From assembly GCA_025450075.1 (NCBI GenBank), contig JANWIC010000009.1, forward strand, positions 38,368 to 102,367: 64,000 nucleotides of DNA. Direction: 5' to 3'. Positions 3,434-55,776 of this stretch are shown here, piece by piece. Source of the stretch: Patescibacteria group bacterium (GTDB taxonomy: Bacteria; Patescibacteriota; Dojkabacteria; JAKAPS01). Within the stretch, counting starts at the first letter, position 1. Each line of letters opens with the position of its first letter. Below the pieces are notes generated by a model. It worked only from the letters and a program-made list of their open reading frames with translations. It had not been told where the DNA came from and made no database searches. The translations under genes were made by a program, and so were the position numbers.

Positions 3434-5476
3434 ATGGAAAATACAAAGATATTTATAGATATAGATGATGAGATAACATTTGTAGCGGAACGTGTTCTTG
3501 CTACAAAAACTCCTTATGTTATCCTTGTAATTCCTGAAAGAGCTACGATTCTTTCAAGTTTAGCAAGTTTAAAACTTTTATCTTATGTGGTTGGCAAAAG
3601 TGGTAAGCAGGTTGTCGTTGTTACAATGGATGAGGTTGGTAAAGTTCTTGCTGAAAGGGCAGGATTTTTAACACGAAATAGAGTTGGTGAAGTAGAAACA
3701 ACAATATGGGATTCAATTGAGGGAGCAAAAGATGAACAAAAAATTGAGGAGGTAGTACCAGAAGCAAAAAAAAGTGAAGTTGTGACTGAACAGGAAGCAA
3801 TTCCTGTTGTGGATAAAGAAGAGGATATAGTTGAGCCAGAAATTTTAAAAGAAGAGGAGCAGAACCAGCCATCTATTATTGCTGTACAGCCAATAATCCA
3901 GGAAAAAGAAATTGAAAGACCTGTTGAAGTATTACCGAAAGAAGAAATAATCGAAGAAAAACCGTTAGAAGAACCAGAACAATCTGTTCTTGATATAGAA
4001 GAGATCCCTCTTGTTGAGACTAAAGAAGTTCCTGCCGTTGAGCCTAAAATCACAAATTCTAAACCCAAATATGTAGAATCTGTTAAAATAGTAAAGCTGG
4101 ATGGTTTTGAATTGATTGTAGGGGGAGACGCAGCTGTTATCAGAAAATCGAGAGAAATTGAACGAAAAGTTATTACTAAAAAAGCTGACACTATTTCTTC
4201 TTTGCGTTTGTCATCTGAAAGATATTATGAAGAAGGAATCGTAGGAAAAGATATTGAAGCAAATATAGCAAAAAAAAAAATAACAAATAAATCCATTTTA
4301 CAAATTATGCAAACGGTAGATACTATAAAAAAGAATACCTCTGGACGTTTTAAAAAGTGGATGGTTATTCCTATTGCTATTCTTTTGTTATTACTCATAA
4401 TCTTTTCCTTTGTTATAATGCCTTCTGCGCAAGTAGCAATAACAGTAAAAGCACAACCGTTAACTGATTCTTCCGATGTGCTAGCTAACGTGAATACATC
4501 CCAGGTTGATCCAAATGCAAAAACAATCCCTGCATATTATATAGATGTAAATGAAAGCTCATCTTCATCAGCAAATACAACAGGAGCAAAAGTTATTGGG
4601 AATAAGGCGACGGGAAATGTAACTTTCTATAGTGTGAGTAAAACTTCATTTACAATTCCTAAAGGAACAGTTTTTGTGACAAATGATCAAAATGCATTAA
4701 GCTATACACTCGATAATGATGTAGCAATAAACGGAACGCCTGCTGCAGTTGTAACACAAACAGGAGGCTTGACAGCATCTGATATCGGAACAAAATATAA
4801 CATTGCAGCTAATACACCATTTACGATTCAATTAAGTAATGTTCCGGCAGGAATTACTGCTGCTTCAGGAAGTGCTTTTACGGGTGGAACTTCTCAAAAT
4901 GCACAAGTGGTCGCGCAAACTGACCAAGATCATTTGCTTGCCGGTCTTGAGCAGCAACTATACCAAAAAGGACAGGATGAATTACAGGCAAAACTAACTA
5001 GCGATATGATAGTTGCAAAGGACACTCAAAAAAATGAGGATGTAACAAAATCTTTCGATAGTAATGTCGGGGATAAATCGAATATTTTGAACCTTTCATT
5101 AACAACCAAAACAAGTGTCATCGTTTACAAGCTTTCCGATCTTACAACGTATGAGAACAAAGTTATAGCGCAAAGTTTGAACAAAAATGATACAATTAGT
5201 AACTTGTCAGTATCGCAAACATATAAAGGATATGATACAACAGCACAAAACTTGAAAATTAAAATTGATGCAAAAGCACTTGCTACTCCCGTATTAGATA
5301 AGGCTACAATAACGAAAAATATTACTAGAACATTGCAAGGTAATGCAGCATCATATATTAAGAAAGTAAATGGCGTAGTTGACGTCTCTATAAAAGTGTC
5401 TCCGTTCTGGTATGACATTTTTAAAATGATGCCTCTTCGTCAAAATAACATTACCATAGTGGTAAAAACACAATAA
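3434..5476 (+). CDS. hypothetical bitopic membrane protein (acidic cytoplasmic N-domain, one TM, large Ser/Thr-rich extracytoplasmic domain)
   Basis: 680-aa ORF tightly coupled to the ftsA-like gene (2-nt gap). It has an E/K/P-rich acidic low-complexity stretch (~aa 100-200), one hydrophobic helix 'WMVIPIAILLLLLIIFSFVIM', then ~350 aa rich in T/S/N/V with no recognisable catalytic motif. Confidence 0.5.
   Translation: MENTKIFIDIDDEITFVAERVLATKTPYVILVIPERATILSSLASLKLLSYVVGKSGKQVVVVTMDEVGKVLAERAGFLTRNRVGEVETTIWDSIEGAKDEQKIEEVVPEAKKSEVVTEQEAIPVVDKEEDIVEPEILKEEEQNQPSIIAVQPIIQEKEIERPVEVLPKEEIIEEKPLEEPEQSVLDIEEIPLVETKEVPAVEPKITNSKPKYVESVKIVKLDGFELIVGGDAAVIRKSREIERKVITKKADTISSLRLSSERYYEEGIVGKDIEANIAKKKITNKSILQIMQTVDTIKKNTSGRFKKWMVIPIAILLLLLIIFSFVIMPSAQVAITVKAQPLTDSSDVLANVNTSQVDPNAKTIPAYYIDVNESSSSSANTTGAKVIGNKATGNVTFYSVSKTSFTIPKGTVFVTNDQNALSYTLDNDVAINGTPAAVVTQTGGLTASDIGTKYNIAANTPFTIQLSNVPAGITAASGSAFTGGTSQNAQVVAQTDQDHLLAGLEQQLYQKGQDELQAKLTSDMIVAKDTQKNEDVTKSFDSNVGDKSNILNLSLTTKTSVIVYKLSDLTTYENKVIAQSLNKNDTISNLSVSQTYKGYDTTAQNLKIKIDAKALATPVLDKATITKNITRTLQGNAASYIKKVNGVVDVSIKVSPFWYDIFKMMPLRQNNITIVVKTQ
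4270..4280 (+). repeat. A11 homopolymer inside a coding sequence
   Basis: Eleven consecutive A residues encoding 'AKKKIT' in ORF 3434-5476. It is the longest mononucleotide run I saw in the window. Confidence 0.6.
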
Positions 5477-5478
5477 TC

Positions 5479-7710
5479 ATGGGAAGAAAGAAAAAGAAAA
5501 AAAAGATCACAATCAAAAGTGAAGAGACAACTACTATCTTTGGAGTCTTGGCCTTAGTTGCTGCTGGATTAGTTCTCTCAAGCATCTTTGTTACAAATCA
5601 CTACTTACTTAAGTTACATATCTTTTTTGGAGGAGGATCAGTATTTGCAGCTGTATTACTTCTCATTTTTGCTCTGAGGATGTTTGGGAATAAATTCAGA
5701 TTCAATAAAGGCAAAGTACTGATTAGTCTTTGTGTATTTTTGATGGCTTCTCTTGGTTTTATTCAACTTTTTTCGTATAACAACCAAGCTGATGATGTAT
5801 CATTACTAAATGGTGGAGGAACTTTAGGATATTGGGTCTCAAATACGGCAAATAATATTTTGGGTACAAGTCTTGCAGAAATTGTTTTGGCAATTATTGC
5901 ACTTATCTCCTTTATTTTAGGATTATCTATTCCAATAACAAAAATATTTCGACTTGTTCGCGCTTTTACTAATGCGGTTACGCACTTATTTAGTAATAAG
6001 ATCTATCCTTTCTGTTCATCACTAACAAAACATGGATATGAATCATATCAAGCAAGAAAAAAACAAAAGAAACCTCAACAGTCAGAAAAACAACAGAAAA
6101 CCCCTATGCCAGCTGCCTCAGTATCACATGATACTCCTATGATGGTAGGCGACCTTTCAGGACGGAATGTCATTCCATCCCCTGAACCAAGAACTGATGT
6201 CCCTGTCGTTACTACAGCGGCGCAAATGGCTGAACATAAGGCTGTCGTATCTGAAGAGCAATTTGCTCACTGGCAATACCCTCCTCTTGATCTATTGAAT
6301 AAACCAAAGCCATATGTGGCACATGATGAAAATGTAAAAAAGAATTCCGATATCATTGAAAAGACATTAGAAAGCTTCGGTATCCTTGCTAAGGTGGCTG
6401 ATGTAAAAATAGGGCCAGTGGTAACACAATATGCCCTCCAAATTACAATGGGGACCAAAGTTGCAAAGATTAATAATTTAAGTAAAGATCTTGCCCTAGC
6501 ATTAGCTGCTCCATCAGGTATGGTTCGTGTTGAAGCTCCGATACCAGGAACTTCTTTAGTAGGGATAGAAATGCCAAATTCACATCCAAGAACCGTATCA
6601 CTTAGAGAAATAATGGAATCACCCGACATGATGGGTAGTGGAATGAAGCTACCAATAGCATTGGGAAGAGATGTTTCCGGAAGCGTAATGATAAAAGACC
6701 TCCAAAAGATGCCTCATTTACTCATCGCCGGTTCTACCGGATCAGGTAAATCAGTGACCGTAAACTCATTTATCATAAGCCTTTTATTCAAACATTCACC
6801 GAATGAACTGAAGTTAATTATGGTAGATCCAAAGCAAGTTGAATTGTCACAATATAATGGAATTCCGCACTTGTTAGTTCCCGTCATAACAGATATGGAA
6901 AAAGTTGTAAATGCATTGAAATGGGCATTAGTAGAAATGGATAGCAGGTATAAACGATTTAAAGAGGTGCAAGTTCGAAATATTGAAGGATATAACCAGC
7001 GACCAGATGTAGAACAATTGCCGTATATCGTCATTATTATTGATGAAATGGCGGATCTGATGATGGTACAAGGTGTAGAAGTAGAAAGTTGTATTGTCCG
7101 TCTTGCTCAAATGGCACGAGCTGTTGGAATCCATTTGGTTCTCGCAACGCAACGTCCATCTGTCAATGTTATTACTGGGCTTATCAAGGCAAATATCCCT
7201 GCCCGTATTGGTATGAGTGTCGTTTCAGTTATTGACTCACGAGTAATTCTTGATACTACAGGAGCTGAAACTTTGCTTGGGAAAGGAGATATGCTTTTTA
7301 AACTTCCTGATTCTATTCGTCCGGTACGTGTTCAAGGCGTATGGACGAGTGATGAAGAAATTGAAAGAGTCCTACTTTTCATTAAAGAACAATCCCCTGA
7401 AGTCGAATATTCTGAAGAAATTACACAATTTCAAGAAGGAGAAAAGAAGAGCATGGTTGGGCATGGTTGGGAAGATGCAATGTTTCCTGATGCGGTGCAT
7501 GTCGTTGTAAATGCAGGAAGAGGATCAGCTTCAATACTACAATCAAAACTTCGAATTGGTTATGCTCGTGCTGCGAGACTTATCGAAGAATTAGAGGTAC
7601 GTGGAGTGGTAGGACGTCAAGATGGAAGTAAACCAAGAGATGTATTAATTACCGATGCTGACGTTTTCTTAGGTCAGCAGCAACAAATGAATGATGAAAA
7701 CAGTAGGTGA
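5479..7710 (+). CDS. ftsK: DNA translocase FtsK
   Basis: N-terminal polytopic membrane region. FtsK motor: Walker A 'LLIAGSTGSGKSVTVNSFI', Walker B 'IVIIIDEMADLMM', 'LVLATQRPSVNVITGLIKANIPARIGMSV'. C-terminal winged-helix gamma domain 'SASILQSKLRIGYARAARLIEELEVRGVVG'. Confidence 0.9.
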   Translation: MGRKKKKKKITIKSEETTTIFGVLALVAAGLVLSSIFVTNHYLLKLHIFFGGGSVFAAVLLLIFALRMFGNKFRFNKGKVLISLCVFLMASLGFIQLFSYNNQADDVSLLNGGGTLGYWVSNTANNILGTSLAEIVLAIIALISFILGLSIPITKIFRLVRAFTNAVTHLFSNKIYPFCSSLTKHGYESYQARKKQKKPQQSEKQQKTPMPAASVSHDTPMMVGDLSGRNVIPSPEPRTDVPVVTTAAQMAEHKAVVSEEQFAHWQYPPLDLLNKPKPYVAHDENVKKNSDIIEKTLESFGILAKVADVKIGPVVTQYALQITMGTKVAKINNLSKDLALALAAPSGMVRVEAPIPGTSLVGIEMPNSHPRTVSLREIMESPDMMGSGMKLPIALGRDVSGSVMIKDLQKMPHLLIAGSTGSGKSVTVNSFIISLLFKHSPNELKLIMVDPKQVELSQYNGIPHLLVPVITDMEKVVNALKWALVEMDSRYKRFKEVQVRNIEGYNQRPDVEQLPYIVIIIDEMADLMMVQGVEVESCIVRLAQMARAVGIHLVLATQRPSVNVITGLIKANIPARIGMSVVSVIDSRVILDTTGAETLLGKGDMLFKLPDSIRPVRVQGVWTSDEEIERVLLFIKEQSPEVEYSEEITQFQEGEKKSMVGHGWEDAMFPDAVHVVVNAGRGSASILQSKLRIGYARAARLIEELEVRGVVGRQDGSKPRDVLITDADVFLGQQQQMNDENSR

Positions 7711-9890: not shown

Positions 9891-10583
9891 ATGTCAAGAT
9901 CTTTATCCATATTTTTCCCTGCCTTGAACGAAGGAAGGAATATTGAAAAAACGATAAAAAAGGCTGAAGCATTTTTAGAAAAGAAAAAATTTGATTATGA
10001 AATAATCGTTGTGAATGATAGTTTCACTACTGATGATACTTCTGCACGTGTAAAAAAACTATCGAATAAAAATCCAAGAGTAATATTTATACAAAATAGA
10101 GGACACGGCTATGGCTCAGGGTTGAAAAAGGGATTCGCTTCTTCTACAAAAGAATTAATCTTTTTTACCGATGCTGATTTACAGTTTGATATTAATGATC
10201 TGGATAAGCTTTTAAAACATATTGATACTTATGATTATGTAATAGGGTATAGGAGAAGGCGCTCTGATCCTTTTATACGAAATTTTAATGCAAAAGCGTA
10301 TGGCTTGTTAGTCAGGTTGCTTTTAGGTGTACATGTTAAAGATGTAGATTGTGCTTTCAAATTATTTCATGCATCTGATATCAAATCCATAAAGATGAAA
10401 TCTACTGGAGCCCTTATCAGTGCTGAAATTCTGTATAAGCTGCAACAGAAGAAATATACTTTTACCGAAGTCCCTGTTCGTCATTTTGAGCGAAAATATG
10501 GGAAGCCAACAGGAGCCAATATTCGTGTTATACTAAATATGTTTATTGAGCTATTTCGGCTTAAATTTAATCTTCAAAATTAG
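9891..10583 (+). CDS. glycosyltransferase family 2, polyprenyl-phosphate sugar synthase-like (GtrB/DPM1-like)
   Basis: 'LSIFFPALNEGRNIEKTI...YEIIVVNDSFTTDDTSARV...GHGYGSGLKKGF...FFTDADLQFDINDL' is the GT-A fold DxD region, typical of GtrB/Dpm1-type enzymes. Confidence 0.85.
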   Translation: MSRSLSIFFPALNEGRNIEKTIKKAEAFLEKKKFDYEIIVVNDSFTTDDTSARVKKLSNKNPRVIFIQNRGHGYGSGLKKGFASSTKELIFFTDADLQFDINDLDKLLKHIDTYDYVIGYRRRRSDPFIRNFNAKAYGLLVRLLLGVHVKDVDCAFKLFHASDIKSIKMKSTGALISAEILYKLQQKKYTFTEVPVRHFERKYGKPTGANIRVILNMFIELFRLKFNLQN

Positions 10584-10584
10584 C

Positions 10585-11022
10585 ATGTCAAAAGTTTTAA
10601 TAAAATTTGGCGCTGTCGGGTTGATAAATACAGCTTTAGACTTTTCCATAGTGCAAATCCTTGCATTTGTATTTGATATTAAAAGTGGAATATTCCTATT
10701 GTTGGCAAATACGTTTTCTGCGTCAGTTGCAATGATAAATAGTTTTTTTTTGAATAAGAAGTGGACGTTTGAAGATAAAGAAGAAAGATATATAAAACAA
10801 TTCCTTGTGTTTATTTTAGTAAATCTATTTTCAATTGTAATAAATGATACAATTGTTTTATCTTTAAGCAATTATGTACCACATTATGTGATTGTTTACC
10901 ATCACTTTCTTCAAAGTTTGCTTTTCACTAAAGTTATAGCTATTGTCTTTACAATGATCTTTAATTTCTTCGCATATAAATTATTCGTATTTAAACCTGC
11001 TGTTGAAGCAAATATTACTTAA
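10585..11022 (+). CDS. GtrA-family membrane protein (polyprenol-P-sugar flippase-like)
   Basis: ~145 aa with 4 TM. N-terminal 'LIKFGAVGLINTALDFSIVQIL' matches the GtrA family. It lies directly downstream of the GT2 gene. ATG 10585 follows the GT2 stop at 10583. Confidence 0.75.
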   Translation: MSKVLIKFGAVGLINTALDFSIVQILAFVFDIKSGIFLLLANTFSASVAMINSFFLNKKWTFEDKEERYIKQFLVFILVNLFSIVINDTIVLSLSNYVPHYVIVYHHFLQSLLFTKVIAIVFTMIFNFFAYKLFVFKPAVEANIT

Positions 11023-12887: not shown

Positions 12888-13322
12888 ATGAAAAGATTTT
12901 TCCATATTGAAACAGTCTATGCACATTGTGATATCCCATGCGGAATTTATGATGCAAGACCTTCTGAGATTGCTGCAGAGACAGTATTGAAAATGGTACA
13001 AAAGATCCAAGAAATTGCTGGAAGTGAAGAATATAAAGCGGGAGATCCTACTGCTACAAGCAATTTTATCAGATGTGTTTTAGTAAAAGAAGAACATGCC
13101 AGAAAATGCAAAGAAGAAATACTTATCTTATGGACTGACTTTTTTAAACCAGAAGATTTGGAAAAATATCCGGATCTACATAATAAAATCTGGAAAACTG
13201 CAAAAATGCTTTCTAAAGAAAAGCAGGAAGTAAATCTTGAAAATACAAAACAACTCGTTGCAGATGTCCGATCTATAGGAGAAATGGTAAAAAGTGTACA
13301 AGAAGCTCGAAGTAAAAAATAG
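12888..13322 (+). CDS. sodN: nickel-containing superoxide dismutase precursor
   Basis: Pro-peptide 'MKRFFHIETVYA' followed by the Ni-hook 'HCDIPCGIYD' (canonical mature N-terminus His-Cys-Asp-x-Pro-Cys-Gly-x-Tyr). Four-helix-bundle length ~130 aa. Confidence 0.85.
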   Translation: MKRFFHIETVYAHCDIPCGIYDARPSEIAAETVLKMVQKIQEIAGSEEYKAGDPTATSNFIRCVLVKEEHARKCKEEILILWTDFFKPEDLEKYPDLHNKIWKTAKMLSKEKQEVNLENTKQLVADVRSIGEMVKSVQEARSKK

Positions 13323-13616
13323 ATGATTATTCTAGGAATCTTTCGGGTTAGTGGAAATAGTATGAGACCAAATTTAAAGAATAATGATCTCATCCTGGTA
13401 AGTGCAATTCCCTACGTTTTCCACTCACCAAAAGAAGAGGATATCATATTGGCACTAGATCCAAGAGACAAAAGGAAAATAGTAAAACGGATAATTCATG
13501 TTTCTATTGATGCTTATATAATACAGGGTGATAATCCTGAAGAGAGTACAGACAGTCGTATATTTGGAACAATAACAAATGTATCTATTTTAGGAAAAGT
13601 TTTATGGAAGTTATAA
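13323..13616 (+). CDS. sodX: S26-family signal-peptidase-like maturation protease for Ni-SOD
   Basis: 97 aa. 'VSGNSMRPNLKNNDLILV' (catalytic Ser in the SM box) and 'KRIIHV' (Lys box). It lies immediately downstream of sodN with a 1-nt gap. Confidence 0.75.
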   Translation: MIILGIFRVSGNSMRPNLKNNDLILVSAIPYVFHSPKEEDIILALDPRDKRKIVKRIIHVSIDAYIIQGDNPEESTDSRIFGTITNVSILGKVLWKL

Positions 13617-16302: not shown

Positions 16303-16659
16303 TTAATCTTGTGCAACCTTCTTAGGATGGAGGAAAATTAAACAAGCAATAAGAAAAAGGAAAATCGTAATAAACAGATTTACACTAATTTGTTTGTGAA
16401 TCCTGACGTTTAAAAGTATTGTTACAATAAGACTAAAGCTGAAACTGTAAAATATCGGGAAACGCCTACGGAAAAAAATTAGGATAATATCAGAAGCGAT
16501 AAATGTAATACAAAAAAACAAGAAAGAAAAAAGATAAATCATATTATTATTTAATGAAGAACCTGAGAGTGGAGAAGAGATGAACATTATCCCCATTTCA
16601 AAAAGGATGAGGATACAAAATAGTATGGTTAATATAATCCGCTTAATGGAATGCTTCAT
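16303..16659 (-). CDS. hypothetical membrane protein
   Basis: 118 aa, 3-4 TM, no motif. It overlaps the start of the downstream RimK-like gene. Confidence 0.35.
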   Translation of the reverse strand: MKHSIKRIILTILFCILILFEMGIMFISSPLSGSSLNNNMIYLFSFLFFCITFIASDIILIFFRRRFPIFYSFSFSLIVTILLNVRIHKQISVNLFITIFLFLIACLIFLHPKKVAQD

Positions 16660-17524
16660 AATTATCTAATACGGCCTGAACAAAAAGTTCAGCAACGGGT
16701 ATATTGGTTACTGATGTAAATCCTTTAAATTGAGGAGCATTGTTTACCTCAAGCACATATGGTACATCTTCATGTACCATGACATCAACTCCAGCAAAAT
16801 CTACTTGCATTACTTGAGCAGCTTTTATGGCAATTTCTTCAAGCTGAGGAGTAAGTTTCGCTTCTTCAATTTTGCTACCTTGAGAGAAATTTGTTTTAAA
16901 TGCGCCATCTACAGCAATTTTCTTCATTGCTCCTAATGCTTTTTCATACAATACAATAATTCTGTAATCCTCCCGATTGCCGATAAAATCTTGAACGAAA
17001 AAATTAATTCTATCAGATGTTTGCTTGACTACCTGCTCTATCTCTTCAAAGTTATTTGCCAAGAATACGTTATTCCCTTTACTGCCAGGAAATCCTTTAA
17101 GGATAAGAGGATAAGTGAATTCTTTTTCAATAAATGTACGGGTTTCATCTGTTTCTGATTCAAGTCGCCCAATAAAAAAAGTACGAGGAATTTGTATCCC
17201 ATGCATACTCAATCGAACCATCTCATCCATCTTGGTATTGCGTTGTAATAGACATTGTAAATCTTGAATATATGCACCACTTTCGAGCGCAACTCGGGAA
17301 GCATAGATGGATTTTTGTGATCCTACTCTTCTGATAATAATATCAAATGTACGAATATCTCCGTGTAGAGTCATCGCATATGTCTTGTCTTTTTGCATAA
17401 AGATTTGTATTTCATCAGAAGTTATTGCATGGCAAATATGGCCATGCCGGGTGAATGAACTGACCATCTCGTCTGCTTCGATGGTATGTGGCGCACCAAT
17501 GATGAGTATATTTAATTGCTTCAT
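16643..17524 (-). CDS. RimK-family ATP-grasp ligase (alpha-L-glutamate ligase-like)
   Basis: 293 aa. ATP-grasp elements: '...LILKGFPGSKGNNVFLANN...', 'DYRIIVL', 'FAGVDVMV...VLEVNNAPQFKGF'. RimK-like size and layout. Confidence 0.75.
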   Translation of the reverse strand: MKQLNILIIGAPHTIEADEMVSSFTRHGHICHAITSDEIQIFMQKDKTYAMTLHGDIRTFDIIIRRVGSQKSIYASRVALESGAYIQDLQCLLQRNTKMDEMVRLSMHGIQIPRTFFIGRLESETDETRTFIEKEFTYPLILKGFPGSKGNNVFLANNFEEIEQVVKQTSDRINFFVQDFIGNREDYRIIVLYEKALGAMKKIAVDGAFKTNFSQGSKIEEAKLTPQLEEIAIKAAQVMQVDFAGVDVMVHEDVPYVLEVNNAPQFKGFTSVTNIPVAELFVQAVLDNYEAFH

Positions 17525-17533
17525 ATCAATATA

Positions 17534-18418
17534 CTAACATAAATTAGAATATGTGAGGACAAAATCAATCAAAGCTTTGGCTACATTCACACCTGTAGCA
17601 TCTTCAAAACCTTTAAATTGGGGGTATAGGTTTACCTCTAGTACTTTATATTGCCCGTTTTCAATAATGAGATCAACCCCACAAAAATCCATACCAAGTA
17701 CTTCAGCTGCTTTTACGGATATATTTATAATCTCATCACTTAGAGGAAAGTTCTCAACACTTCCTCCCAGTGAGTAATTATTCCTGAAATCATTTTGTGG
17801 ATGAATTCGTTTCATAGCTCCAAGAACCTTCTTTCCTATAACGATAATTCGAAGATCAAAATCAGATTGGACAAAAGGTTGAAGCAAGAGTCTTCCTCTT
17901 CCATACTCTGCAAGGAGTCTTTGGATATCTTCAAGATTATTGACTAGGTGTACGGCTAAACCCTGGCTCCCAAAAATTCTTTTTGCTACAAGAGGAAAGT
18001 GTACATCCAGCTTATCCAGTTGTTCCTGACCAAACTTTGTTCCAGGAATAGCTATTGTATTAATGATTGGGACGTGTGCGCTTGATAATGTTACATACTG
18101 ATGGAGCTTCGTATTATACCCTGCATTTTGAATGAGATATCTCTCATTTAACACATACTTTCCAAGCCTTTGTTGTTCAAGAGCAATCATAAAAAGATAT
18201 GGGGTCATCGAGCTAACTGTGACTCTTGGAATTATGATATCGTAATCTGCATAATCGAATCCCTCATAAGAATGGAGAGTAGTCTTCTGTTCAGAAATAC
18301 GTGCATATATATCTTTGAAATAGAGGTTGTCCGGAGTAATTCCCCGAAGTTGAAGTTCTTCGTTTAATCGCCTGACTTGATAACCATTTCCGGTACTTGA
18401 AAGGAGTGCAATTTTCAT
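17534..18418 (-). CDS. RimK-family ATP-grasp ligase (paralog)
   Basis: 294 aa, paralogous to the gene at 16643-17524. 'FPLVAKRIFGSQGLAVHLVNN', 'DLRIIVIGKKVLGAMKR', 'FCGVDLII...VLEVNLYPQFKGF'. Confidence 0.75.
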   Translation of the reverse strand: MKIALLSSTGNGYQVRRLNEELQLRGITPDNLYFKDIYARISEQKTTLHSYEGFDYADYDIIIPRVTVSSMTPYLFMIALEQQRLGKYVLNERYLIQNAGYNTKLHQYVTLSSAHVPIINTIAIPGTKFGQEQLDKLDVHFPLVAKRIFGSQGLAVHLVNNLEDIQRLLAEYGRGRLLLQPFVQSDFDLRIIVIGKKVLGAMKRIHPQNDFRNNYSLGGSVENFPLSDEIINISVKAAEVLGMDFCGVDLIIENGQYKVLEVNLYPQFKGFEDATGVNVAKALIDFVLTYSNLC

Positions 18419-18432
18419 ATAGTAAAGATAAA

Positions 18433-19851
18433 TTATTTTCTTGATGGATCAATAATGAAATGATGGAGATCTTTTGCTCCAATAATACCCGGGTATTTTA
18501 AGAGAGTTCGATCAACAACGGTGAATTTAGTTTTAAGATGAAATCCTTCAATTACCATCTCTGCTTCAATTATTGGCCGGATGGTAATCCCATTGCCAGC
18601 TTTAATGATTGAAATGTCAGTAATATCAGGTGATTCATGTAAGATTGTCGGCTCATTAATGGCGCAAAATTCTTTAGCTTGTGTACGGGTAAGGTCGGTT
18701 GGAATTGAGTATGTGTTGAAATAGTCTATTGCTGTTCCAAATCCTAGCTTTCTTGCAAGTTCAGTGTCAATAGATGAAAAAGTTGCTCCCGTATCAACTT
18801 TTGCTGCCACTTCCTGTATTTCAAGAGATTTTCCTTTAATCAAGACAGAAGTATGCAATCCAATGATTTTTTTCCCAATAAGAGTCTCGACTTCTTCTTC
18901 AACTTCTCCCCCAAAAAGCTCTTTCCCAAGCCTGATACCACGTTTAATGCTTTTTACTTTTAATCTTCTGACTCTTTTTAATCTTTCTACTAATCCATCA
19001 TTATTCGCTATTTGGATTGCAAGTCCGGGACGTGCATTAACTTCAAGCATTACAGGTCCTTTTTCTCGATCTATTGCAATATCTACTCCAATATATCCAA
19101 GGTCAGTTTGGGTCTGTGCCTTGATAGCCATTTCTAGAATTCTATCCCAAAATGGAATTGTAACCCCGCTGAGCCTCATTTTAGTATCAGGGTGTATTTC
19201 AATAACCTTATCATGTTGAATAGCAACCGTAGTAATTCCAGAAGCTATATCAATTCCTACTCCAACACCTCCTGCATGGAGGTTCGCTTTACCATTTGAC
19301 TCACGTGTAGGGAGTCGCAATTCTGCCATGATGGGCACCTTATTATATACAATGAGCCTGATATCAGGTACACCTTTGTATAAAAAAGGTTTCAATTCCG
19401 GAATATTTTTTAACCTCTCTTCAAAGAATGCCCTATCAGGTGTATTGTTTAAAGAAAAATTCCCTTCCAAAATATTTCTAATATGAGCACTCAAATCTTC
19501 TTTCGAGTAAGTTTTCCCGTCAGCTTGAATCCATTCCCGTTTTTGATCTGGAGATTTTCGTTTTTTTTCTCCATATACCACAATAATGCCTTCTCCTCCA
19601 AATCCCTTATTTGGCTTTAATACAAAACTTGATGGCAATTTATTCCAATCAAATTGTTCTAACGCCTCTTTCGTTCGTATAACAGCATATGTTTTCGGTG
19701 TAGATATGTCGGTAGTTTGAAGAATTCGTTTAAATCGAAGTTTGCTGTCAGCAATCGCACGTGATTCCTTTGAGTTTTCGGGAAGGGTATAAAGCAGGTT
19801 TCGAGCATTTAACCCTAATATTGATTGTGTTGCTCTTAAATATTTAAACAT
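18433..19851 (-). CDS. alpha-L-glutamate-ligase-related ATP-grasp protein fused to a retropepsin-like (putative 'ATP-dependent zinc protease', DUF785-like) domain
   Basis: N-terminal ~320 aa is ATP-grasp-like ('FVLKPNKGFGGEGIIVV', 'IRLIVYN', 'IGVDIAIDREKGPVMLEVNARPGL'). C-terminal ~150 aa has 'LEIQEVAAKVDTGATFSSID', the D-T-G-A aspartic-protease-like signature of retropepsin-like domains known to accompany RimK-type ligases. Confidence 0.65.
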   Translation of the reverse strand: MFKYLRATQSILGLNARNLLYTLPENSKESRAIADSKLRFKRILQTTDISTPKTYAVIRTKEALEQFDWNKLPSSFVLKPNKGFGGEGIIVVYGEKKRKSPDQKREWIQADGKTYSKEDLSAHIRNILEGNFSLNNTPDRAFFEERLKNIPELKPFLYKGVPDIRLIVYNKVPIMAELRLPTRESNGKANLHAGGVGVGIDIASGITTVAIQHDKVIEIHPDTKMRLSGVTIPFWDRILEMAIKAQTQTDLGYIGVDIAIDREKGPVMLEVNARPGLAIQIANNDGLVERLKRVRRLKVKSIKRGIRLGKELFGGEVEEEVETLIGKKIIGLHTSVLIKGKSLEIQEVAAKVDTGATFSSIDTELARKLGFGTAIDYFNTYSIPTDLTRTQAKEFCAINEPTILHESPDITDISIIKAGNGITIRPIIEAEMVIEGFHLKTKFTVVDRTLLKYPGIIGAKDLHHFIIDPSRK

Positions 19852-20557
19852 ACTCCTTACTTTTTTCTTTAATGACTGATCTAAACCTAATTATTTCAGT
19901 AAGACGTAATCCTTTCCATTGTCCCATGAGCAAATCAACAACAAGAGCCAGAATGATTACTTCAGGATATTGCATCAGCAAATTACGGAAAATATGTGAA
20001 GTTATGATAAGAAAGATTATTGCAGCAGTCACGATTGTTTCCAGATAAAGTTTACGGGCTGCCTTAAATCCATTTTTTACTTGAGCTGTTAAATAAATAT
20101 CACTAAGGGTGATAAAAAGAATGACAGACATAGCCATCATATTTGCTTGTCCAACATCAGGAAGAGAAATGGTGAATGGCAGAATAAGCAAAAAAATAAT
20201 ACATATAAGTGTTACTAAGATTGCCATTCTAGGTAAATAATGGATACGAAGTTGTCGTGTTAAAAATCGTAGGATAATAGCTGAAAGGAATATCAGAAGT
20301 GATAAAAGAAAGCCTGGAATCAAACCAGTTCCTAAGAAAGCATAAGTTGCTATTACTGGTGCATAAGCTCCAAACATTTTTATTCCGATTACCTGACGTG
20401 AAAACGCAACAAACATCATTATTATAGGGAGCGATAACACATACATGACCAGCTGTTCGGAAATCTTACCATGAGCAGTAAGGAAGATAAAGAAGTTTGA
20501 CATAGTCCGGTTTTTATATAAGCGCCTCCTTATAGCATAAATGCGCAAAAGAAGCAA
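19844..20557 (-). CDS. polytopic membrane protein (7TM-like, RimK-cassette associated)
   Basis: 237 aa with ~6-7 hydrophobic helices. It overlaps the ATP-grasp-retropepsin gene by 8 nt. No transglutaminase domain is detected. The true start may be internal (MSNFF...). Confidence 0.45.
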   Translation of the reverse strand: MLLLRIYAIRRRLYKNRTMSNFFIFLTAHGKISEQLVMYVLSLPIIMMFVAFSRQVIGIKMFGAYAPVIATYAFLGTGLIPGFLLSLLIFLSAIILRFLTRQLRIHYLPRMAILVTLICIIFLLILPFTISLPDVGQANMMAMSVILFITLSDIYLTAQVKNGFKAARKLYLETIVTAAIIFLIITSHIFRNLLMQYPEVIILALVVDLLMGQWKGLRLTEIIRFRSVIKEKSKEYV

Positions 20558-20611
20558 GATAACGTGCCTATTATAGGCGTTTTACTGGGGATTTTCTATA
20601 TAACAGTATAG

Positions 20612-45319: not shown

Positions 45320-47242
45320 ATGTTAAATTTACTTCCTTTTGTAAAATCCTCAGGGATATACTGTTCCTTGACAGCATTACGATATGAAGAAGATTTTGGT
45401 ATCGGGGATATCCGGGGCGGATATAAATTTATTGATTTTCTGGCAAAAGCAGGATTCGGAGTATGGAAAATGCAACCTCTTCAACAAATGGATGGAGCTA
45501 AAGAATCAATTCCATATTATCCGCTTAGTTCATTTGCAATTGATGAAATTTATGCTGATATTTTAAGCTTGGAAGATATCGATTATGCTTCACGTCAGGC
45601 ATTCTTAGATAATCATAGAAGCATTTTACATGGTAATAAGTCTGTACAATATTCCCAGATTAGGCAATTAAAACAAAAAATTCTCCAGGAAGCATTCATG
45701 CTTTTTTATGAGAACCAATATCATAAAGATTCGGAGCGAAAACTTACTTTTGATAATTTCATTGCAAGAAATACAGCTTGGCTTCCTGATTTTGCGCTCT
45801 TTATGTCCATATTTAGCGCATATAACAGTCAAGTAAAAGAATGGCCTGAAGAATTATTACAAAAAGATGCGAATGCAATTAAGGTATATAAGGCAAAATT
45901 TGAGAAAGATATCCTGATGTATATGTATATCCAGTGGATATTACAAGAACAGTTTGTTGCACTGACTCAATATGCCCACAATAAAAACGTTTATCTTATA
46001 ACAGAAATTCCTTTCTATCCGAGTATATTCAGTGCTGATGTTTGGGCACATCCAAATCTATTTGAAGTTGATGTGAACCTTAATCCTCTTGCATATCCAG
46101 GATCTGCACCAGATTTATCCCATCCGTACGGTCAACAATGGAATTACGCATTATATAACTGGGAGAAAATGAAATCTAATGGGTATAGCTGGTGGATAAA
46201 TAGGTTAGCAAAGTTATCATCATATACGGATGGAACAATCATAGACAACTTTGACTGCTTTTTGCAATATTGGAAAATTACAGGAAACCAAGGAAGGGGT
46301 TTTACTGGCCCTGGGGTAGAGCTTCTCAATATGATTGCAAAACAATACAAAGATGAAAAGCTATTTATGCTTTATGCCGATAATTCTTATTTATCAGGAG
46401 GTGTAGGAGAAACTTTACGAAAACAAGTAGGCTTTGAAGCCTATTTCCCATATATTCAAAAATATAAAGATATTTTAAAACATACAATTGATTATCAAGC
46501 TGCTGCACAAATAAGCGTTGCTGATACACCAACTTTAAAAGGGTGGTGGAAGATGCTTCCAGAAGTTGATAAGAAATATGTTTTAGAAGAACTGAATGTA
46601 CCAGTTATGGAAAGTGACCTTCAGGAATTGAAAGATACTGTTAGATGGAGAATCTTGGAAGATATCCTTTATCAACCATTCACTCTCGTGCTTCTACCGA
46701 TTCAAGAGATTCTCGGGCTTGATGTAACTATTCAGGGAAAGTTAACTGAAGATTGGGTATATAGAATGGATATATCCGTCGAAGAACTACTAAAAGATGA
46801 TGATCTTATAAGTAAATTTGATATTTATGCAAGTAAGTTTTCAACAAATAGATATTTTAAAGAATACCGTCTTCGGGCAATTCCTGAAATCTATGATGAA
46901 GTACAAAGGCATTATACCGTTGGTGAGACGATTACGCTTTGGGCTTTAGTTGAAAAGGAACATGAAATAAGTGGGATAACGAATTTGCCTGTGGTGGGAA
47001 ATATGAGCGAGGAAATTAAAGAACTACCTTTCATGAAAGTTGCGGCAGATACCAGAGGGACACTTTTTCGTCTTGAGATTATTGCTCAAAAACCGGGAGA
47101 ATATGTTATTTCGGTTCATGCAGGGAATAATTCTATTAGGAGTCTAGAAAAAAAACTTGAAGTTATTATTGAAGATGATAAGAAAAACTACAAACCATTC
47201 TTTAGTTCCGTGTTTAAACCATTTCCAAAGATAAGTGATTAA
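45320..47242 (+). CDS. malQ: 4-alpha-glucanotransferase (GH77, MalQ-like) with ~150-aa C-terminal extension
   Basis: N-terminal 'SSGIYCSLTALRYEEDFGIGDIRGGYKFIDFLAKAGFGVWKMQPL' matches the GH77 start. Aromatic-rich catalytic core. The C-terminal ~150 aa (VGETITLWALVEKEHEISG...) is an additional beta-rich domain. Confidence 0.7.
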   Translation: MLNLLPFVKSSGIYCSLTALRYEEDFGIGDIRGGYKFIDFLAKAGFGVWKMQPLQQMDGAKESIPYYPLSSFAIDEIYADILSLEDIDYASRQAFLDNHRSILHGNKSVQYSQIRQLKQKILQEAFMLFYENQYHKDSERKLTFDNFIARNTAWLPDFALFMSIFSAYNSQVKEWPEELLQKDANAIKVYKAKFEKDILMYMYIQWILQEQFVALTQYAHNKNVYLITEIPFYPSIFSADVWAHPNLFEVDVNLNPLAYPGSAPDLSHPYGQQWNYALYNWEKMKSNGYSWWINRLAKLSSYTDGTIIDNFDCFLQYWKITGNQGRGFTGPGVELLNMIAKQYKDEKLFMLYADNSYLSGGVGETLRKQVGFEAYFPYIQKYKDILKHTIDYQAAAQISVADTPTLKGWWKMLPEVDKKYVLEELNVPVMESDLQELKDTVRWRILEDILYQPFTLVLLPIQEILGLDVTIQGKLTEDWVYRMDISVEELLKDDDLISKFDIYASKFSTNRYFKEYRLRAIPEIYDEVQRHYTVGETITLWALVEKEHEISGITNLPVVGNMSEEIKELPFMKVAADTRGTLFRLEIIAQKPGEYVISVHAGNNSIRSLEKKLEVIIEDDKKNYKPFFSSVFKPFPKISD

Positions 47243-47243
47243 T

Positions 47244-49271
47244 ATGGCAAATCCTTTGATAAGTATCAAAAATATAACAAAGACGTATAAAGAGAAAAAA
47301 AATCGTATTCAAGCTTTGGATCATTTAACTCTCGATATATACAAAGGAGAGTTCCTTGTTATTATGGGGCCATCGGGAAGTGGAAAATCTACTCTACTAG
47401 ATATTCTTGCATGTATTGATACACCAGATGAAGGAAGTGTCTGGTATAGGGATTTGGAACTTACTAAGGCTTCTTCAAAAATTATTGCTTTATACCGACA
47501 AAGAATTATTGGAATTGTATTCCAAAGAAACTTTAACCTTATTCGAAATTTATCAGTCAACACAAATTTGCTTTTGCCTCGATTATTAAATAAGGTTCAT
47601 GAAAGACAAGCAGATTTTGATTCACTTAACTTATTACTTGATTTGAATCTGAAAGAAATTGAAAAGCGGCCAGCAGAAACACTTTCATTGGGTGAGCAAC
47701 AAAGGGTAGCAATTGCCCGAGTTCTTATGAATAACCCGGAAATTATTATTGCTGATGAACCAACTGGAAATTTGGATAGTGCAAATGGAGCAAGGCTAAT
47801 GGAAATATTAAAAAAGCTCAATGAAGAGAATGGTAAAACTATTATTATCGTTACCCACAATCCTGAATTTGCCACACTTGCAAGCAGGGTAATATATCTC
47901 AAAGACGGAAAAATTGAAAGAACTGAAGTTAGAATAGATAAATCTACAAATGAAGATGATACAAGTGAAAATATTTTAAAAACTGAGAAAGCAAAACCTT
48001 TTAGATTGTCTACAGCCATATGGTTAGCTTCTCAGTTATTCATGAAAAACAAATACCGCTTTATTATAACTCTTTCAAGTATTATCCTTGCATTAGCAAT
48101 TCTAGTTGTACAGATAGATTTAGTTAATCTGTCACCTGAAACTATTTCAGCAAGTAAAGATGCAACTGGATACAATAATGAGATAATTGGTTCTCAACAA
48201 ATTGTTATTGCGGCACAAGGAAAGGAATACTTTGATAATCCTTGGCTTCTAAACCCATACCTACCGATCTCTCCAGGAAGACTTGTAACAAAGGGAGGAA
48301 TAGCAAACATTAGTTCGATACCGCATGTAAAGGATGCCTATCCGGTTATTCCACTTGAAGTGAAAACACCAAATATCTCTTTTTTTGCAGAAACCGGATC
48401 ACCGGTAGCCACTTCCAATCTCCCATCAACATATTTTGTATCTGGTGCGTATTTTAAAACAGACACGCAACATGCAATCATCCTTAATGAGGAGATAGCT
48501 CGTGTTATAGCAGGGGGAAGTGATGTCACTTCCCTTATTGGAACGACAATTCCTATCCAAGTGAGTATTCGTGAGATTCCATTATCGCAAAATGTCTCCA
48601 TTCATGAGAATGCAACAATAGTTGGAATTCAAAATTATGCTGAGCCTTGGATTGTTGCCCAGGTTCCTTATGCCTTTGGAGATTTAATTCAAAACAATAT
48701 TCTGAAAGGATACCCCATAACAAAAATTGATGTTGATGGCGCATCTCATCTTTCCCAGGTTAAAGATGCTTTGGGTAATATGGGATATGCTGCATTTAGC
48801 CAAACAGACGAATTGCATATTCTTGATATTATCATTAATCTTATTGCTATTGTGTTATTAAGCATCATTCTCTTAAACTTTATTGCCATTTGCATCAATA
48901 TCCTAAATGCAATTGTTATTCTTGTGGTGAAAAAATCTCGTATGCTTATGGCGCTATTATCTATTGGGGTCAGGAAAAATGACATAAAAAAATACATTCT
49001 CCTTCAAGGAATAATTATTGGAACCATTGCAGGCATAGGAGGATGGGTACTGGGATATGTATTTTCTGATATTCTTGCAAATGATATTACGGTTACAATA
49101 CTTGGCGGATCTAAAACCGGTGCAGGAAATCCTTTATTATTTGTTTCAAGCCCCGGTGAAATGGTTATTTTAATTTTAATATCGATTGTTTTGGCAATAC
49201 TAGAAGTTACATATTATATGTATAAGATTCCGTCGAAGAAATCTGTGTTGAAAATATTACGAAGAGAATAA
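47244..49271 (+). CDS. ABC transporter, fused ATPase-FtsX permease (MacB-like)
   Basis: N-terminal ATPase 'GPSGSGKSTLLDILACID', signature 'LSLGEQQRVAIARVL', Walker B 'IIIADEPTGNLD'. C-terminal FtsX-type 4-TM permease with a large extracytoplasmic domain between TM1 and TM2. ATG 47244 is directly after the malQ stop. Confidence 0.85.
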   Translation: MANPLISIKNITKTYKEKKNRIQALDHLTLDIYKGEFLVIMGPSGSGKSTLLDILACIDTPDEGSVWYRDLELTKASSKIIALYRQRIIGIVFQRNFNLIRNLSVNTNLLLPRLLNKVHERQADFDSLNLLLDLNLKEIEKRPAETLSLGEQQRVAIARVLMNNPEIIIADEPTGNLDSANGARLMEILKKLNEENGKTIIIVTHNPEFATLASRVIYLKDGKIERTEVRIDKSTNEDDTSENILKTEKAKPFRLSTAIWLASQLFMKNKYRFIITLSSIILALAILVVQIDLVNLSPETISASKDATGYNNEIIGSQQIVIAAQGKEYFDNPWLLNPYLPISPGRLVTKGGIANISSIPHVKDAYPVIPLEVKTPNISFFAETGSPVATSNLPSTYFVSGAYFKTDTQHAIILNEEIARVIAGGSDVTSLIGTTIPIQVSIREIPLSQNVSIHENATIVGIQNYAEPWIVAQVPYAFGDLIQNNILKGYPITKIDVDGASHLSQVKDALGNMGYAAFSQTDELHILDIIINLIAIVLLSIILLNFIAICINILNAIVILVVKKSRMLMALLSIGVRKNDIKKYILLQGIIIGTIAGIGGWVLGYVFSDILANDITVTILGGSKTGAGNPLLFVSSPGEMVILILISIVLAILEVTYYMYKIPSKKSVLKILRRE

Positions 49272-49272
49272 T

Positions 49273-55046: not shown

Positions 55047-55776
55047 GATTATGTCAACAACCCAAGATCATCTCGATATAGAAGATGTGAGGGATGATAT
55101 GATGGTTTTAAAAGATGGAAGAGTATGTATTATTCTTGAAACAAGTGCAGTGAATTTCAGCTTACTTTCAGAAATAGAACAGGATGCGAAGATAGCCGCA
55201 TTTGCAGGATTACTCAATTCAATCAATTACAACCTCCAAATAGTTGTACACACAGAAAGTGTTGATGTCTCAAAATATATTGTAACCCTTGAAAATTACA
55301 AGAATAAACAAACGAGTGAGAAGATCAAATACCAAATTTCAAACTATATTGAGTTTATAAAAAACCTTATTAAAAAGAATGATGTGCTTGATAAACGATT
55401 CTATGTTGTAATACCATATATACCTTATGGAGTAAAAAGGACAAGCCCTTTGAGACAAGTATTTGGTAAACCAAATAGAATTCTTGATTTAGGGAGGCTT
55501 CTTGAAACTGCAAAACTTGACCTCTATCCAAAAAAAGATGGAATCGTTAAACTTTTAATTAGAATGGGAATTAAAACGAGGCAACTAACTACAGAAGAAA
55601 TTATTAAGCTTTTTTATAAGCTCTATAATTCAGAAGGGAATACTTTACCAAAATCACGATTTACAGAAGATGATGTTCTTGCTGCAGTAGTTGGAACACC
55701 TAAAAATTACGATACCGTACAGGAAGATATTACTATCCCATATACAAATAATGAACCCAACGACATTAAACAATAA
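55033..55776 (+). CDS. T4SS-associated protein resembling the N-terminal domain of VirB4/TrbE, encoded separately
   Basis: 'LDIEDVRDDMMVLKDGRVCIILETSAVNFSLLSEIEQDAKIAAFAGLLNSINYNLQIVV' resembles the VirB4 N-terminal region. Its stop (55776) overlaps the VirB4 ATG (55751) by 26 nt. It is paralogous to ORF 59403-59858. Confidence 0.45.
   Translation: MAANRIMSTTQDHLDIEDVRDDMMVLKDGRVCIILETSAVNFSLLSEIEQDAKIAAFAGLLNSINYNLQIVVHTESVDVSKYIVTLENYKNKQTSEKIKYQISNYIEFIKNLIKKNDVLDKRFYVVIPYIPYGVKRTSPLRQVFGKPNRILDLGRLLETAKLDLYPKKDGIVKLLIRMGIKTRQLTTEEIIKLFYKLYNSEGNTLPKSRFTEDDVLAAVVGTPKNYDTVQEDITIPYTNNEPNDIKQ

Follow-up and report, generated by a model that had tools for sequence, protein, structure and literature searches.

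What does a bacterium of the Candidate Phyla Radiation (CPR, or Patescibacteria) make with three ATP-grasp ligases, a retropepsin-like protease and a polytopic membrane protein encoded end to end on one DNA strand? The question is raised by a stretch of contig JANWIC010000009.1 from a member of the Dojkabacteria (assembly GCA_025450075.1, positions 38,368 to 102,367). This whole 64-kb stretch is referred to below as the window, and coordinates are given in its numbering. A first-pass annotation, made from the sequence alone, had pointed to a minus-strand cassette in which one of the ligases is fused to the protease. The cassette is, with little doubt, a re-wired Rlo-type system.

RloABC was described from Pseudomonas aeruginosa, P. 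fluorescens and other proteobacteria (Lormand et al., mBio 2025; PMC12239564). It consists of RloA, a secreted retropepsin that cuts poly-glutamate (poly-Glu), RloB, an inactive transglutaminase followed by a seven-transmembrane (7TM) domain, and the ATP-grasp protein RloC, and in Pseudomonas it is tied to osmotic-stress survival, biofilm formation, cell shape and beta-lactam tolerance (PMC12239564). The first-pass annotation was right in calling systems of ligase, protease and 7TM partner known. Its description of them as functionally uncharacterised has been overtaken by the RloABC genetics and the RloA biochemistry and structure of 2025 (PMC12239564), and a ligase-protease hybrid, RimBK, has also already been described (PMC11957791).

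A four-gene cassette

All four open reading frames (ORFs) of the cassette are in the ORF list of the window, on the minus strand and where the first-pass annotation had placed them, and their coordinates agree with its picture of tightly spaced, co-directional genes. The 7TM gene and the fusion gene overlap by 8 nt, and the further gaps are 14 nt and 9 nt. An AAGGAG Shine-Dalgarno sequence sits within the 7TM gene, to which the fusion gene is translationally coupled. Since the family matches of the cassette have E-values from 1e-21 to 1e-71 and its gene order is seen again in more than 70 independent genomes, the arrangement cannot be due to chance. Its parts, in the order of transcription, are as follows.

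19844..20503, minus strand: RloB-like 7TM protein, 219 amino acids (aa) (PF14402; public gene call P0121)
18913..19851, minus strand: RloC-type ATP-grasp ligase domain of the fusion protein, residues 1-313 (PF14397, TIGR02291, identity to RloC)
18877..18912, minus strand: acidic interdomain linker of the fusion protein, GGEVEEEVETLI, residues 314-325 (conservation and low model confidence)
18436..18876, minus strand: RloA/RimB-type retropepsin-like aspartic peptidase domain of the fusion protein, residues 326-472 (PF05618, NCBIfam RloA1)
18784-18801, minus strand: catalytic motif K351-x-D353-T-G-A, the DTGA itself being at 18784-18795
18577-18579, minus strand: R425, an invariant Arg of the retropepsin domain
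18508-18510, minus strand: R448, likewise an invariant Arg of that domain
17534..18418, minus strand: ligase A, 294 aa, full length and including the pre-ATP-grasp N-domain (TIGR00768, PF18030)
16643..17524, minus strand: ligase B, 293 aa (TIGR00768)

The fusion protein

The fusion gene (18433-19851, minus strand) encodes 472 aa. That it joins an ATP-grasp ligase to a retropepsin, as the first-pass annotation had it, is borne out by Pfam matches at both ends. The N-terminal match is to PF14397 (ATPgrasp_ST; 241.4 bits, cutoff 31.4; residues 17-295), and the C-terminal one is to PF05618 (Zn_protease/RimB-like; 36.7 bits, cutoff 27). A plasmid of Legionella adelaidensis carries a canonical rloABC operon, to whose 314-aa RloC the ligase domain is 40% identical over its whole length, and the terminus of that RloC (...KEMFAR*) coincides with the point at which the fusion runs on as GGEVEEEVE. 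Like RloC, the domain lacks the pre-ATP-grasp N-domain of RimK and has two characteristic inserts. In alignment with E. coli RimK, the residues K100, D187, R189, N213, D248, E260 and N262 are kept in RloC and in all three ligases of the window, which are predicted to be active because these catalytic positions are retained. Names given in public annotation to relatives of the fusion include 'RimK/LysX family protein' and 'alpha-L-glutamate ligase-like protein'.

AlphaFold2 gives a confident two-domain model of the fusion (mean predicted local distance difference test score, pLDDT, 83.7). Among solved folds, ArgX/LysX, RimK and the cyanophycin synthetase CphA1 come closest to the ligase domain. 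With the whole fusion as query the top 50 fold matches are all ATP-grasp proteins, and the protease domain was therefore examined by sequence profile.

The profile, built from 20 diverse CPR domains, matches the crystal structures 9G59 (E 1.9e-12) and 9G58 (E 5.6e-12), both confirmed as RloA, and after them Legionella 2pma and then the retropepsin domain of Ddi1. The NCBIfam RloA1 model covers fusion residues 326-472. With the PF05618 cutoff passed as well, the C-terminal domain is retropepsin-like, and the motif AAKVDTGATFSSID singled out by the first-pass annotation is indeed present, its DTGA at 18784-18795. D353, G355, A356, R425 and R448 do not vary among 28 fusions that share about 50% identity with the window protein; at K351 these have Lys or Arg. 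The HMMER alignment places R425 and R448 on R94 and R117 of 9G58, which stand at +66 and +89 from the catalytic Asp; this is the spacing of D48, R114 and R137 in P. aeruginosa RloA. K351, D353, R425 and R448 of the fusion align with K46, D48, R114 and R137 of RloA, mutation of which abolishes cleavage of poly-Glu (PMC12239564). R114 and R137 coordinate poly-Glu, and their mutation abolishes complementation also (PMC12239564).

The domain differs from RloA in two respects. The conserved Cys pair of RloA has no counterpart in the CPR domains, the window copy having a single, non-conserved Cys. In place of the RloA flap region there is an insert of about 45 aa with two predicted helices (residues ~358-425; 18577-18780, minus strand), found in the window, Moranbacteria, Dojkabacteria and Kerfeldbacteria versions and not in those of Shapirobacteria, Levybacteria and Portnoybacteria. 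The domain diverges fast, and for this reason the 330 representatives retrieved by a single-sequence search at E<=1e-3, many of them fragments, understate the family.

No signal peptide, hydrophobic N-terminus or transmembrane segment was found in the fusion protein. Together with the lack of an RloA-type Cys pair, this supports a cytoplasmic location.

Between the two domains, F313, G314, G315, E316, E318, E319, E320 and E322 are invariant in the 28 fusion proteins. The pLDDT is below 50 over residues 316-325, and the linker is predicted from the model to be disordered. In Shapirobacteria and Levybacteria fusions the motif is degenerate (e.g. LFGESFVDKV, LFTAAFSDKI).

The membrane partner

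Read from a TTG, the 7TM ORF would open at 20557, the 5′ boundary in the first-pass annotation. The gene itself stands, and its true start is the ATG at 20503 (gene 19844-20503), since the Pfam match opens at residue 19, the public call is of 219 aa and homologues have 211-240 aa. The product matches PF14402 (7TM_transglut) with 76.7 bits (cutoff 25). Its alignment to NCBIfam RloB takes in positions 311-508 only, i.e. the C-terminal part (58.8 bits, cutoff 900), and by BLASTP it aligns solely with the C-terminal 193 residues (316-508) of the 508-aa Legionella RloB (E 2e-16). From this restriction to the C-terminal part it follows that the external, inactive-transglutaminase half of RloB is absent. 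No transglutaminase domain was detected in the 7TM protein or in any other ORF of the window, as the first-pass annotation had suspected.

The C-terminal tail of the CPR 7TM proteins is invariant and strongly basic (G-x-W-K-G-L-R-L-x-E-x-x-R-F-R), and by the positive-inside rule it is predicted to face the cytoplasm. The AlphaFold2 model (pLDDT 83, predicted template modelling score 0.78) found no solved structural relative with Foldseek.

The accessory ligases

Ligases A and B score 169.6 and 150 bits on TIGR00768 (rimK_fam, cutoff 143.4). Ligase A further matches PF18030 (43 bits), and its residues 1-287 align with E. coli RimK (5ZCT; E 5e-29). The two are 29% identical to one another, 27-29% identical to E. 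coli RimK and about 30% identical to other cassette ligases. At the substrate-loop positions H215/R216 of RimK, ligase A has S-L and ligase B has S-Q. Neither approaches the cutoff of the S6--L-glutamate ligase equivalog NF007764 (113.7 bits for A and 96 for B, cutoff 331) or that of LysX (114.9 and 112.7 bits, cutoff 275.6). With D-Ala-D-Ala ligase (Ddl), carbamoyl-phosphate synthase and other biosynthetic equivalogs also far below their cutoffs, the assignment of these ligases to RimK and its relatives holds.

The closest relatives of ligase A (36% and 39% identity) reside in 7TM-fusion cassettes, and ligase B is a singleton among cassette ligases. Within lineages the cassette ligases form groups with a fixed operon position. 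The accessory ligases are old paralogs.

A more distant relative of ligase A stands alone near rpsF, the gene for ribosomal protein S6, in another CPR genome. [In this patescibacterial locus, L090, the RimK-family gene (5001-5888) lies about 4.4 kb from rpsF (10337-10819); its S6 is long (160 aa) and ends ...EGKIV, without the C-terminal Glu for classical RimK extension.] Elsewhere, proteins of 592-635 aa resemble tandem RimK-like ligases (L008 9417-11195, L018 3029-4813, L019 9416-11323).

Distribution in the CPR

Relatives of the fusion number in the thousands. Among the best 120, nearly every protein has 455-503 aa, with PF14397 and usually PF05618; where named, they come from Moranbacteria, Parcubacteria or Patescibacteria. 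One genome per species was scanned with two search patterns, one of them FGGE[IV]EEE, and the neighbourhoods were tabulated; the resulting sample is enriched for Moranbacteria, and its adjacency counts are not phylogenetically independent. It holds 74 CPR loci with the fusion, from Moranbacteria, Kerfeldbacteria, Dojkabacteria/WS6, Shapirobacteria, Levybacteria, Portnoybacteria, Paceibacteria and others.

The operon conservation that the first-pass annotation had proposed to check is strong. The 7TM gene is directly upstream of the fusion in 72 of the 74 loci, and the remaining 2 are at contig ends. Where at least 3.5 kb of downstream sequence is available (49 loci), there are 0, 1, 2 or 3 RimK-like genes downstream in 12, 18, 15 and 4 loci respectively, so that 37 of the 49 have at least one. 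The fusion, the missing transglutaminase domain and the extra ligases, which had been put down as unusual, are so in comparison with proteobacteria; in the CPR they are the norm. The scan matches from proteobacteria and cyanobacteria (L005, L007, L080-L086) are canonical, with a separate RloA, a transglutaminase-plus-7TM RloB and RloC.

The closest relatives of the window cassette are L004 (62% identity), L054 and L058. The synteny rpoD-7TM-fusion-metG is common to the window, L054 and L058, and L004 has its 7TM-fusion-metG part. These relatives are without the two RimK-like genes, so the accessory ligases come and go and are not essential to the core function.

A gene for a class A penicillin-binding protein (PBP), with transglycosylase and transpeptidase domains verified by Pfam, comes after the cassette in 30 of the 74 loci, of which 28 have both on one strand. 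Moranbacteria, Kerfeldbacteria, Portnoybacteria and others are represented (L001, L002, L008-L038, L037, L042, L044, L057, L068).

Most CPR 7TM proteins have 211-240 aa; lengths reach about 290-330 aa in Shapirobacteria and Levybacteria and 535-553 aa in Kerfeldbacteria. In the latter (L037 6416-8023, L039 6356-8017) an N-terminal extracellular extension of about 300 aa has a signal-peptide-like start and a PKD-like repeat. It is not recognised by phmmer as transglutaminase-like, and so some CPR lineages have a different external domain.

Other variations were seen in the sample. An 815-aa protein (L063 7977-10424) has an RloC domain without a detectable retropepsin domain. In Moranbacteria-type loci ruvB, yebC and ruvC are upstream of the cassette. 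The CPR-type cassette is carried also by contigs of metagenome-assembled genomes labelled 'uncultured Bdellovibrionales', 'uncultured Gammaproteobacteria' and 'Candidatus Fimivivens' (e.g. L008, L011, L016, L048, L052); these labels look unreliable, as the flanks are often Moranbacteria-like.

How the cassette may work

The picture that best accommodates these features, and that as a whole is regarded as somewhat probable, is of a membrane-docked maker and trimmer of an acidic peptide of poly-α-glutamate type that is linked to the envelope. The fusion protein would dock on the cytoplasmic face of the 7TM protein, the side to which the conserved basic C-terminal tail of the latter is predicted to point. 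The ligase domain would polymerise or attach alpha-linked glutamate, i.e. an acidic peptide, at the expense of ATP, and the retropepsin domain, as a dimer, would trim or free the acidic chain. Probably the retropepsin domain would modulate the ligase too, as RimB does RimK. The accessory RimK paralogs may extend or diversify the peptide, which the 7TM protein would export or offer to an envelope acceptor. The physiological role would lie in cell-envelope or osmotic homeostasis.

Each joint of this picture has some support. Physical coupling of the 7TM protein and the ligase is supported by the 8-nt gene overlap and by a Halobacterium protein in which a 7TM domain and an RloC-type ligase are one chain (see below). 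For functional coupling of ligase and protease there are precedents in both related systems. RimK synthesises poly-alpha-L-glutamate and lengthens S6 at its C-terminus, and RimB binds RimK, stimulates it, alters its ATPase rate and trims the poly-Glu product (PMC10092738, PMC11957791); deletion of rloB or rloC suppresses the lethality of rloA1-3 mutants in low-osmolarity medium (PMC12239564). The link to the envelope is supported by the class A PBP gene after the cassette (30 of 74 loci) and by the cell-shape, beta-lactam and hypo-osmotic phenotypes seen in rlo mutants of Pseudomonas. CPR cells are not known to have an outer membrane. A cytoplasmic protease and the dropping of the external domain fit a cell that has no periplasm in which to retain a secreted RloA.

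Several points weigh against it. Even in Pseudomonas the RloC-type ligase is of putative activity, and it may add glutamate or another residue, giving either a free polymer or a tail on an acceptor (PMC12239564). The Pseudomonas protease is extracytoplasmic, and a cytoplasmic CPR protease may reflect a different rather than an equivalent way of working; with a helical insert in place of the flap, its specificity may differ from that of both RloA and RimB. The fusion scores 286.1 bits on TIGR02291, slightly below the cutoff of 314.2. As the 7TM fold is without a solved relative, its part as exporter or acceptor platform is purely conjectural. L004, L054 and L058 all lack the RimK-like pair. There is no PBP gene beside the cassette or elsewhere in the window, and PBP adjacency may in part be inherited synteny, most such loci being from Moranbacteria.

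The same parts could be put to other uses, of which the nearest is the tailoring of peptidoglycan or wall precursors. In that case a membrane-bound wall precursor, held at the 7TM protein, would receive from the three ligases a short acidic (alpha-glutamyl) side chain or cross-bridge. The length of the chain would be kept in check by the retropepsin domain, and polymerisation of the tailored precursor would fall to the class A PBP encoded next door. There is an analogy in enterococci, in which an ATP-grasp D-aspartate ligase makes cross-bridges. Where a PBP gene is present it is directly downstream and nearly always on the same strand (28 of 30 loci), and this in several CPR lineages; the 0-3 accessory ligases, in position-specific groups within lineages, suit stepwise addition of residues; the structural neighbours of the ligase domain include Ddl enzymes; and Pseudomonas rlo mutants are altered in cell shape and beta-lactam response, with peptidoglycan homeostasis suspected by the authors (PMC12239564). 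However, any lipid-linked or nucleotide-linked substrate would be hypothetical, no PBP gene lies in the window, PBP adjacency is concentrated in Moranbacteria and so is possibly inherited, and the at least 5-8 contiguous Glu needed by RloA and RimB are far beyond any known cross-bridge. Precursor tailoring of this kind is considered unlikely. The same small chance is allowed to the broader proposal that the CPR cassette decorates the cell wall, with alpha-glutamyl chains on a wall precursor or polymer, their length measured by the retropepsin and the product incorporated by the PBP. If true, this would be a new envelope chemistry and would reveal the long-sought substrate class of Pseudomonas and Vibrio RloBC. 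Less likely again is that the cassette is the CPR equivalent of RimK/RimB or RimBK, poly-glutamylating and trimming ribosomal protein S6 (RpsF), with the 7TM gene a mere neighbour. Ligases A and B are above the RimK-family threshold and A aligns over its full length with E. coli RimK, the retropepsin domain is of the same family as RimB, the trimmer of RpsF poly-Glu tails, and a ligase-protease hybrid exists in RimBK (PMC11957791). Yet the ligase that carries the protease is RloC-type and not RimK-type, its domain order is the reverse of that in RimBK, and the adjacency of 7TM and fusion genes (72 of 74), with their overlap and the archaeal fusion, argues for a membrane system. RimK-like genes are absent from 12 of 49 loci, the closest relatives included, scores on the S6-ligase equivalog (113.7 and 96 bits) are far from 331, no rpsF gene is in the window, and the CPR genome with a stand-alone RimK near rpsF has an S6 ending in ...EGKIV and not in Glu. 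On curated cutoffs and context S6 modification was rejected.

The acidic linker invites a further explanation, in which it serves the protein as an internal processing site, primer or pseudosubstrate and the retropepsin domain cuts or binds its own GGEVEEEVE. Autoprocessing, as in a retroviral polyprotein, would free a Glu-ended ligase open to poly-glutamylation by the RimK paralogs; alternatively, the linker would fill the basic substrate channel and be auto-inhibitory. F-G-G-E-x-E-E-E-x-E is invariant in 28 fusions that are only about 50% identical overall, the predicted disorder would make it accessible, and it starts precisely at the natural C-terminus of unfused RloC; RimB and RloA both cut internal as well as terminal Glu runs, and RimK extends C-terminal Glu residues. 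Set against this, the linker has no more than 3 contiguous Glu, with Val, Ile or Leu between, and RimB requires at least 5-6 (PMC11957791) and RloA at least 8 (PMC12239564), RloA cleavage being abolished by bulky interruptions (PMC12239564). The motif decays in Shapirobacteria and Levybacteria fusions whose catalytic residues are intact, its ubiquity is inflated by the use of FGGE[IV]EEE as a scan pattern, and many loci have no accessory ligase. Autoprocessing was down-weighted on the Glu-run requirement of the known enzymes and the degenerate linkers, and a processing, priming or inhibitory role of the linker is judged very improbable. More improbable still is that the ligases belong to other biosynthesis, as LysX/ArgX carrier ligases, in MptN/CofF-like cofactor glutamylation or in maturation of ribosomally synthesised and post-translationally modified peptides such as graspetides. 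The protease would then be a leader peptidase, and export would fall to the 7TM protein. LysX, MptN and CofF are among the better-scoring NCBIfam models for ligases A and B, and the list of structural neighbours of the fusion ligase domain is headed by ArgX and LysX. Nevertheless LysX reaches 115 bits against a cutoff of 276, MptN 132 against 350 and CofF 83-91 against 300, and graspetide maturases stay under 35 bits. No LysW-like acidic tail or poly-Glu run was found in the ORFs of the window, no conserved precursor-like small ORF at related loci, and no lysine, arginine or cofactor pathway genes nearby. Curated cutoffs and gene context largely refute all these assignments.

The locus and its neighbours

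A low G+C content (about 0.35), the genes present and the relatives found assign the window to a CPR/Patescibacteria genome. On the same strand rpoD, for the housekeeping sigma factor, is the upstream neighbour of the cassette, and metG and tatD are downstream. Two further features adjoin the four genes.

20570..20598, minus strand: candidate cassette promoter, TAGAAA-17 nt-TATAAT, in the interval from the stop of rpoD (20612) to the start of the 7TM gene (20503)
16303..16659, minus strand: 118-aa ORF with four hydrophobic segments, overlapping ligase B by 17 nt (public gene call P0134)

In the rpoD-7TM intergenic region consensus promoter matches are rarer than in shuffled sequence, which is weak evidence, and the TATAAT site is only a candidate for the cassette promoter. 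A second promoter-like site, on similarly weak evidence, is before metG, inside the 3′ end of the 118-aa ORF. Neither Pfam nor NCBIfam has a match for this ORF, and there is no homologue of it among 80 related loci. It could be a membrane component particular to the lineage or else a spurious AT-rich ORF. Its membership of the cassette is uncertain and it is not counted as a core part.

A small substrate ORF with an acidic C-terminal tail had been suggested nearby. None of the 482 window ORFs of at least 30 aa has such a tail or a Glu/Asp run.

Farther off, a nickel superoxide dismutase gene (Sod_Ni) at 12888-13616 (plus strand) is directly followed by a small S26/S24-type peptidase, presumably its maturation protease. 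The regions 47235-51234 and 53073-57769 (both plus strand) encode two consecutive proteins in which an ABC ATPase is fused to an FtsX-type permease, with type IV secretion-like genes after them (a PrgI family protein and a TraG/VirB4-type P-loop ATPase).

Implications

The CPR version provides independent comparative evidence on the biochemistry of the RloB/RloC products and on the in vivo target of RloA. The ligase-protease polypeptide and the archaeal fusion of 7TM and ligase argue that the three modules are one physical machine with one product. The CPR cassette indicates that the protease need not be extracytoplasmic and that the transglutaminase-like domain is dispensable for core function, and the recurrent adjacency of class A PBP genes supports the suspected link to peptidoglycan and the envelope. 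Many CPR lineages, whose genomes are tiny and hold few biosynthetic pathways, have kept the cassette. This retention points to an envelope role of importance in a large and little-understood section of bacterial diversity. Its two-protein core is an attractive minimal system for biochemical reconstitution.

Comparison with known systems

Of the features that define an Rlo system, the RloC, 7TM and retropepsin modules are present in the CPR cassette, and the transglutaminase domain of RloB and a separate, secreted RloA are missing. The comparison was with the canonical examples of the Legionella adelaidensis plasmid (L005), Aeromonas (L007) and L080-L086. In common with them the cassette has a TIGR02291/PF14397 ligase, a PF14402 7TM protein and a PF05618 retropepsin with DTGA, the peptidase keeps the poly-Glu-binding Lys and Arg residues, and the 7TM gene is directly upstream of the ligase gene. 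Unlike RloA, which is a separate secreted protein encoded upstream of rloB, the CPR protease is a C-terminal domain of the ligase and has neither the signal peptide nor the disulfide Cys pair of the periplasmic enzyme. The CPR 7TM protein is without the external inactive transglutaminase domain of about 300 aa, CPR cassettes usually append 1-3 RimK-family ligases, and the acidic linker and the helical insert of the protease are clade-specific. The hosts differ too, being CPR/Patescibacteria as against mostly proteobacteria; RloB was reported to be 96% proteobacterial, and fusions were not mentioned (PMC12239564).

RimBK (e.g. Desulfotalea psychrophila DP2392, with others in Flavobacteriales and Rhodobacterales; PMC11957791) and the RimK-RimB pair share with the CPR fusion the placing of a retropepsin-like poly-Glu endopeptidase and an enzyme of the ATP-grasp alpha-L-glutamate-ligase type in a single cytoplasmic chain or complex. 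RimBK has its protease at the N-terminus (1-163) of a true RimK; in the CPR fusion the order is reversed (protease at 326-472) and the ligase is RloC-type and strictly coupled to a 7TM membrane protein. As domain order, ligase subfamily and 7TM coupling all differ, the CPR fusion arose by an independent event. RimK and RimB act on ribosomal protein S6, with which nothing connects the CPR cassette. Ligases A and B are like E. coli RimK (PDB 5ZCT/4IWX) in passing TIGR00768 and in keeping the catalytic K/D/R/N/D/E/N; they differ from it in their 27-29% identity, in the loss of the substrate-loop H215/R216, in scores below the S6-ligase equivalog cutoff and in having their closest kin inside 7TM-fusion cassettes.

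A joining of the other two modules is found in an archaeon. On a plasmid of Halobacterium sp. DL1 (CP007061.1; L006 4164-5918) an ORF of 584 aa, for which the deposited record has no annotated coding sequence, comprises a 7TM domain (56-244) and an RloC-type ATP-grasp domain (278-557). Like the CPR pair it has a 7TM_transglut-type domain and an RloC-type ligase and is without a transglutaminase domain; unlike it, the ligase is joined to the membrane domain, and no retropepsin domain was found in the locus by phmmer. The fusion puts the ligase at the cytoplasmic C-terminal end of the 7TM domain and so indicates physical association.

The literature searched holds no description of the CPR fusion cassette, does not tie RimK, RimB, Rlo or retropepsin to Patescibacteria, and does not mention TIGR02291, PF14397 or PF14402. 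The CPR cassette is a distinct, previously undescribed architectural variant of the Rlo system, and its standard form across the CPR.

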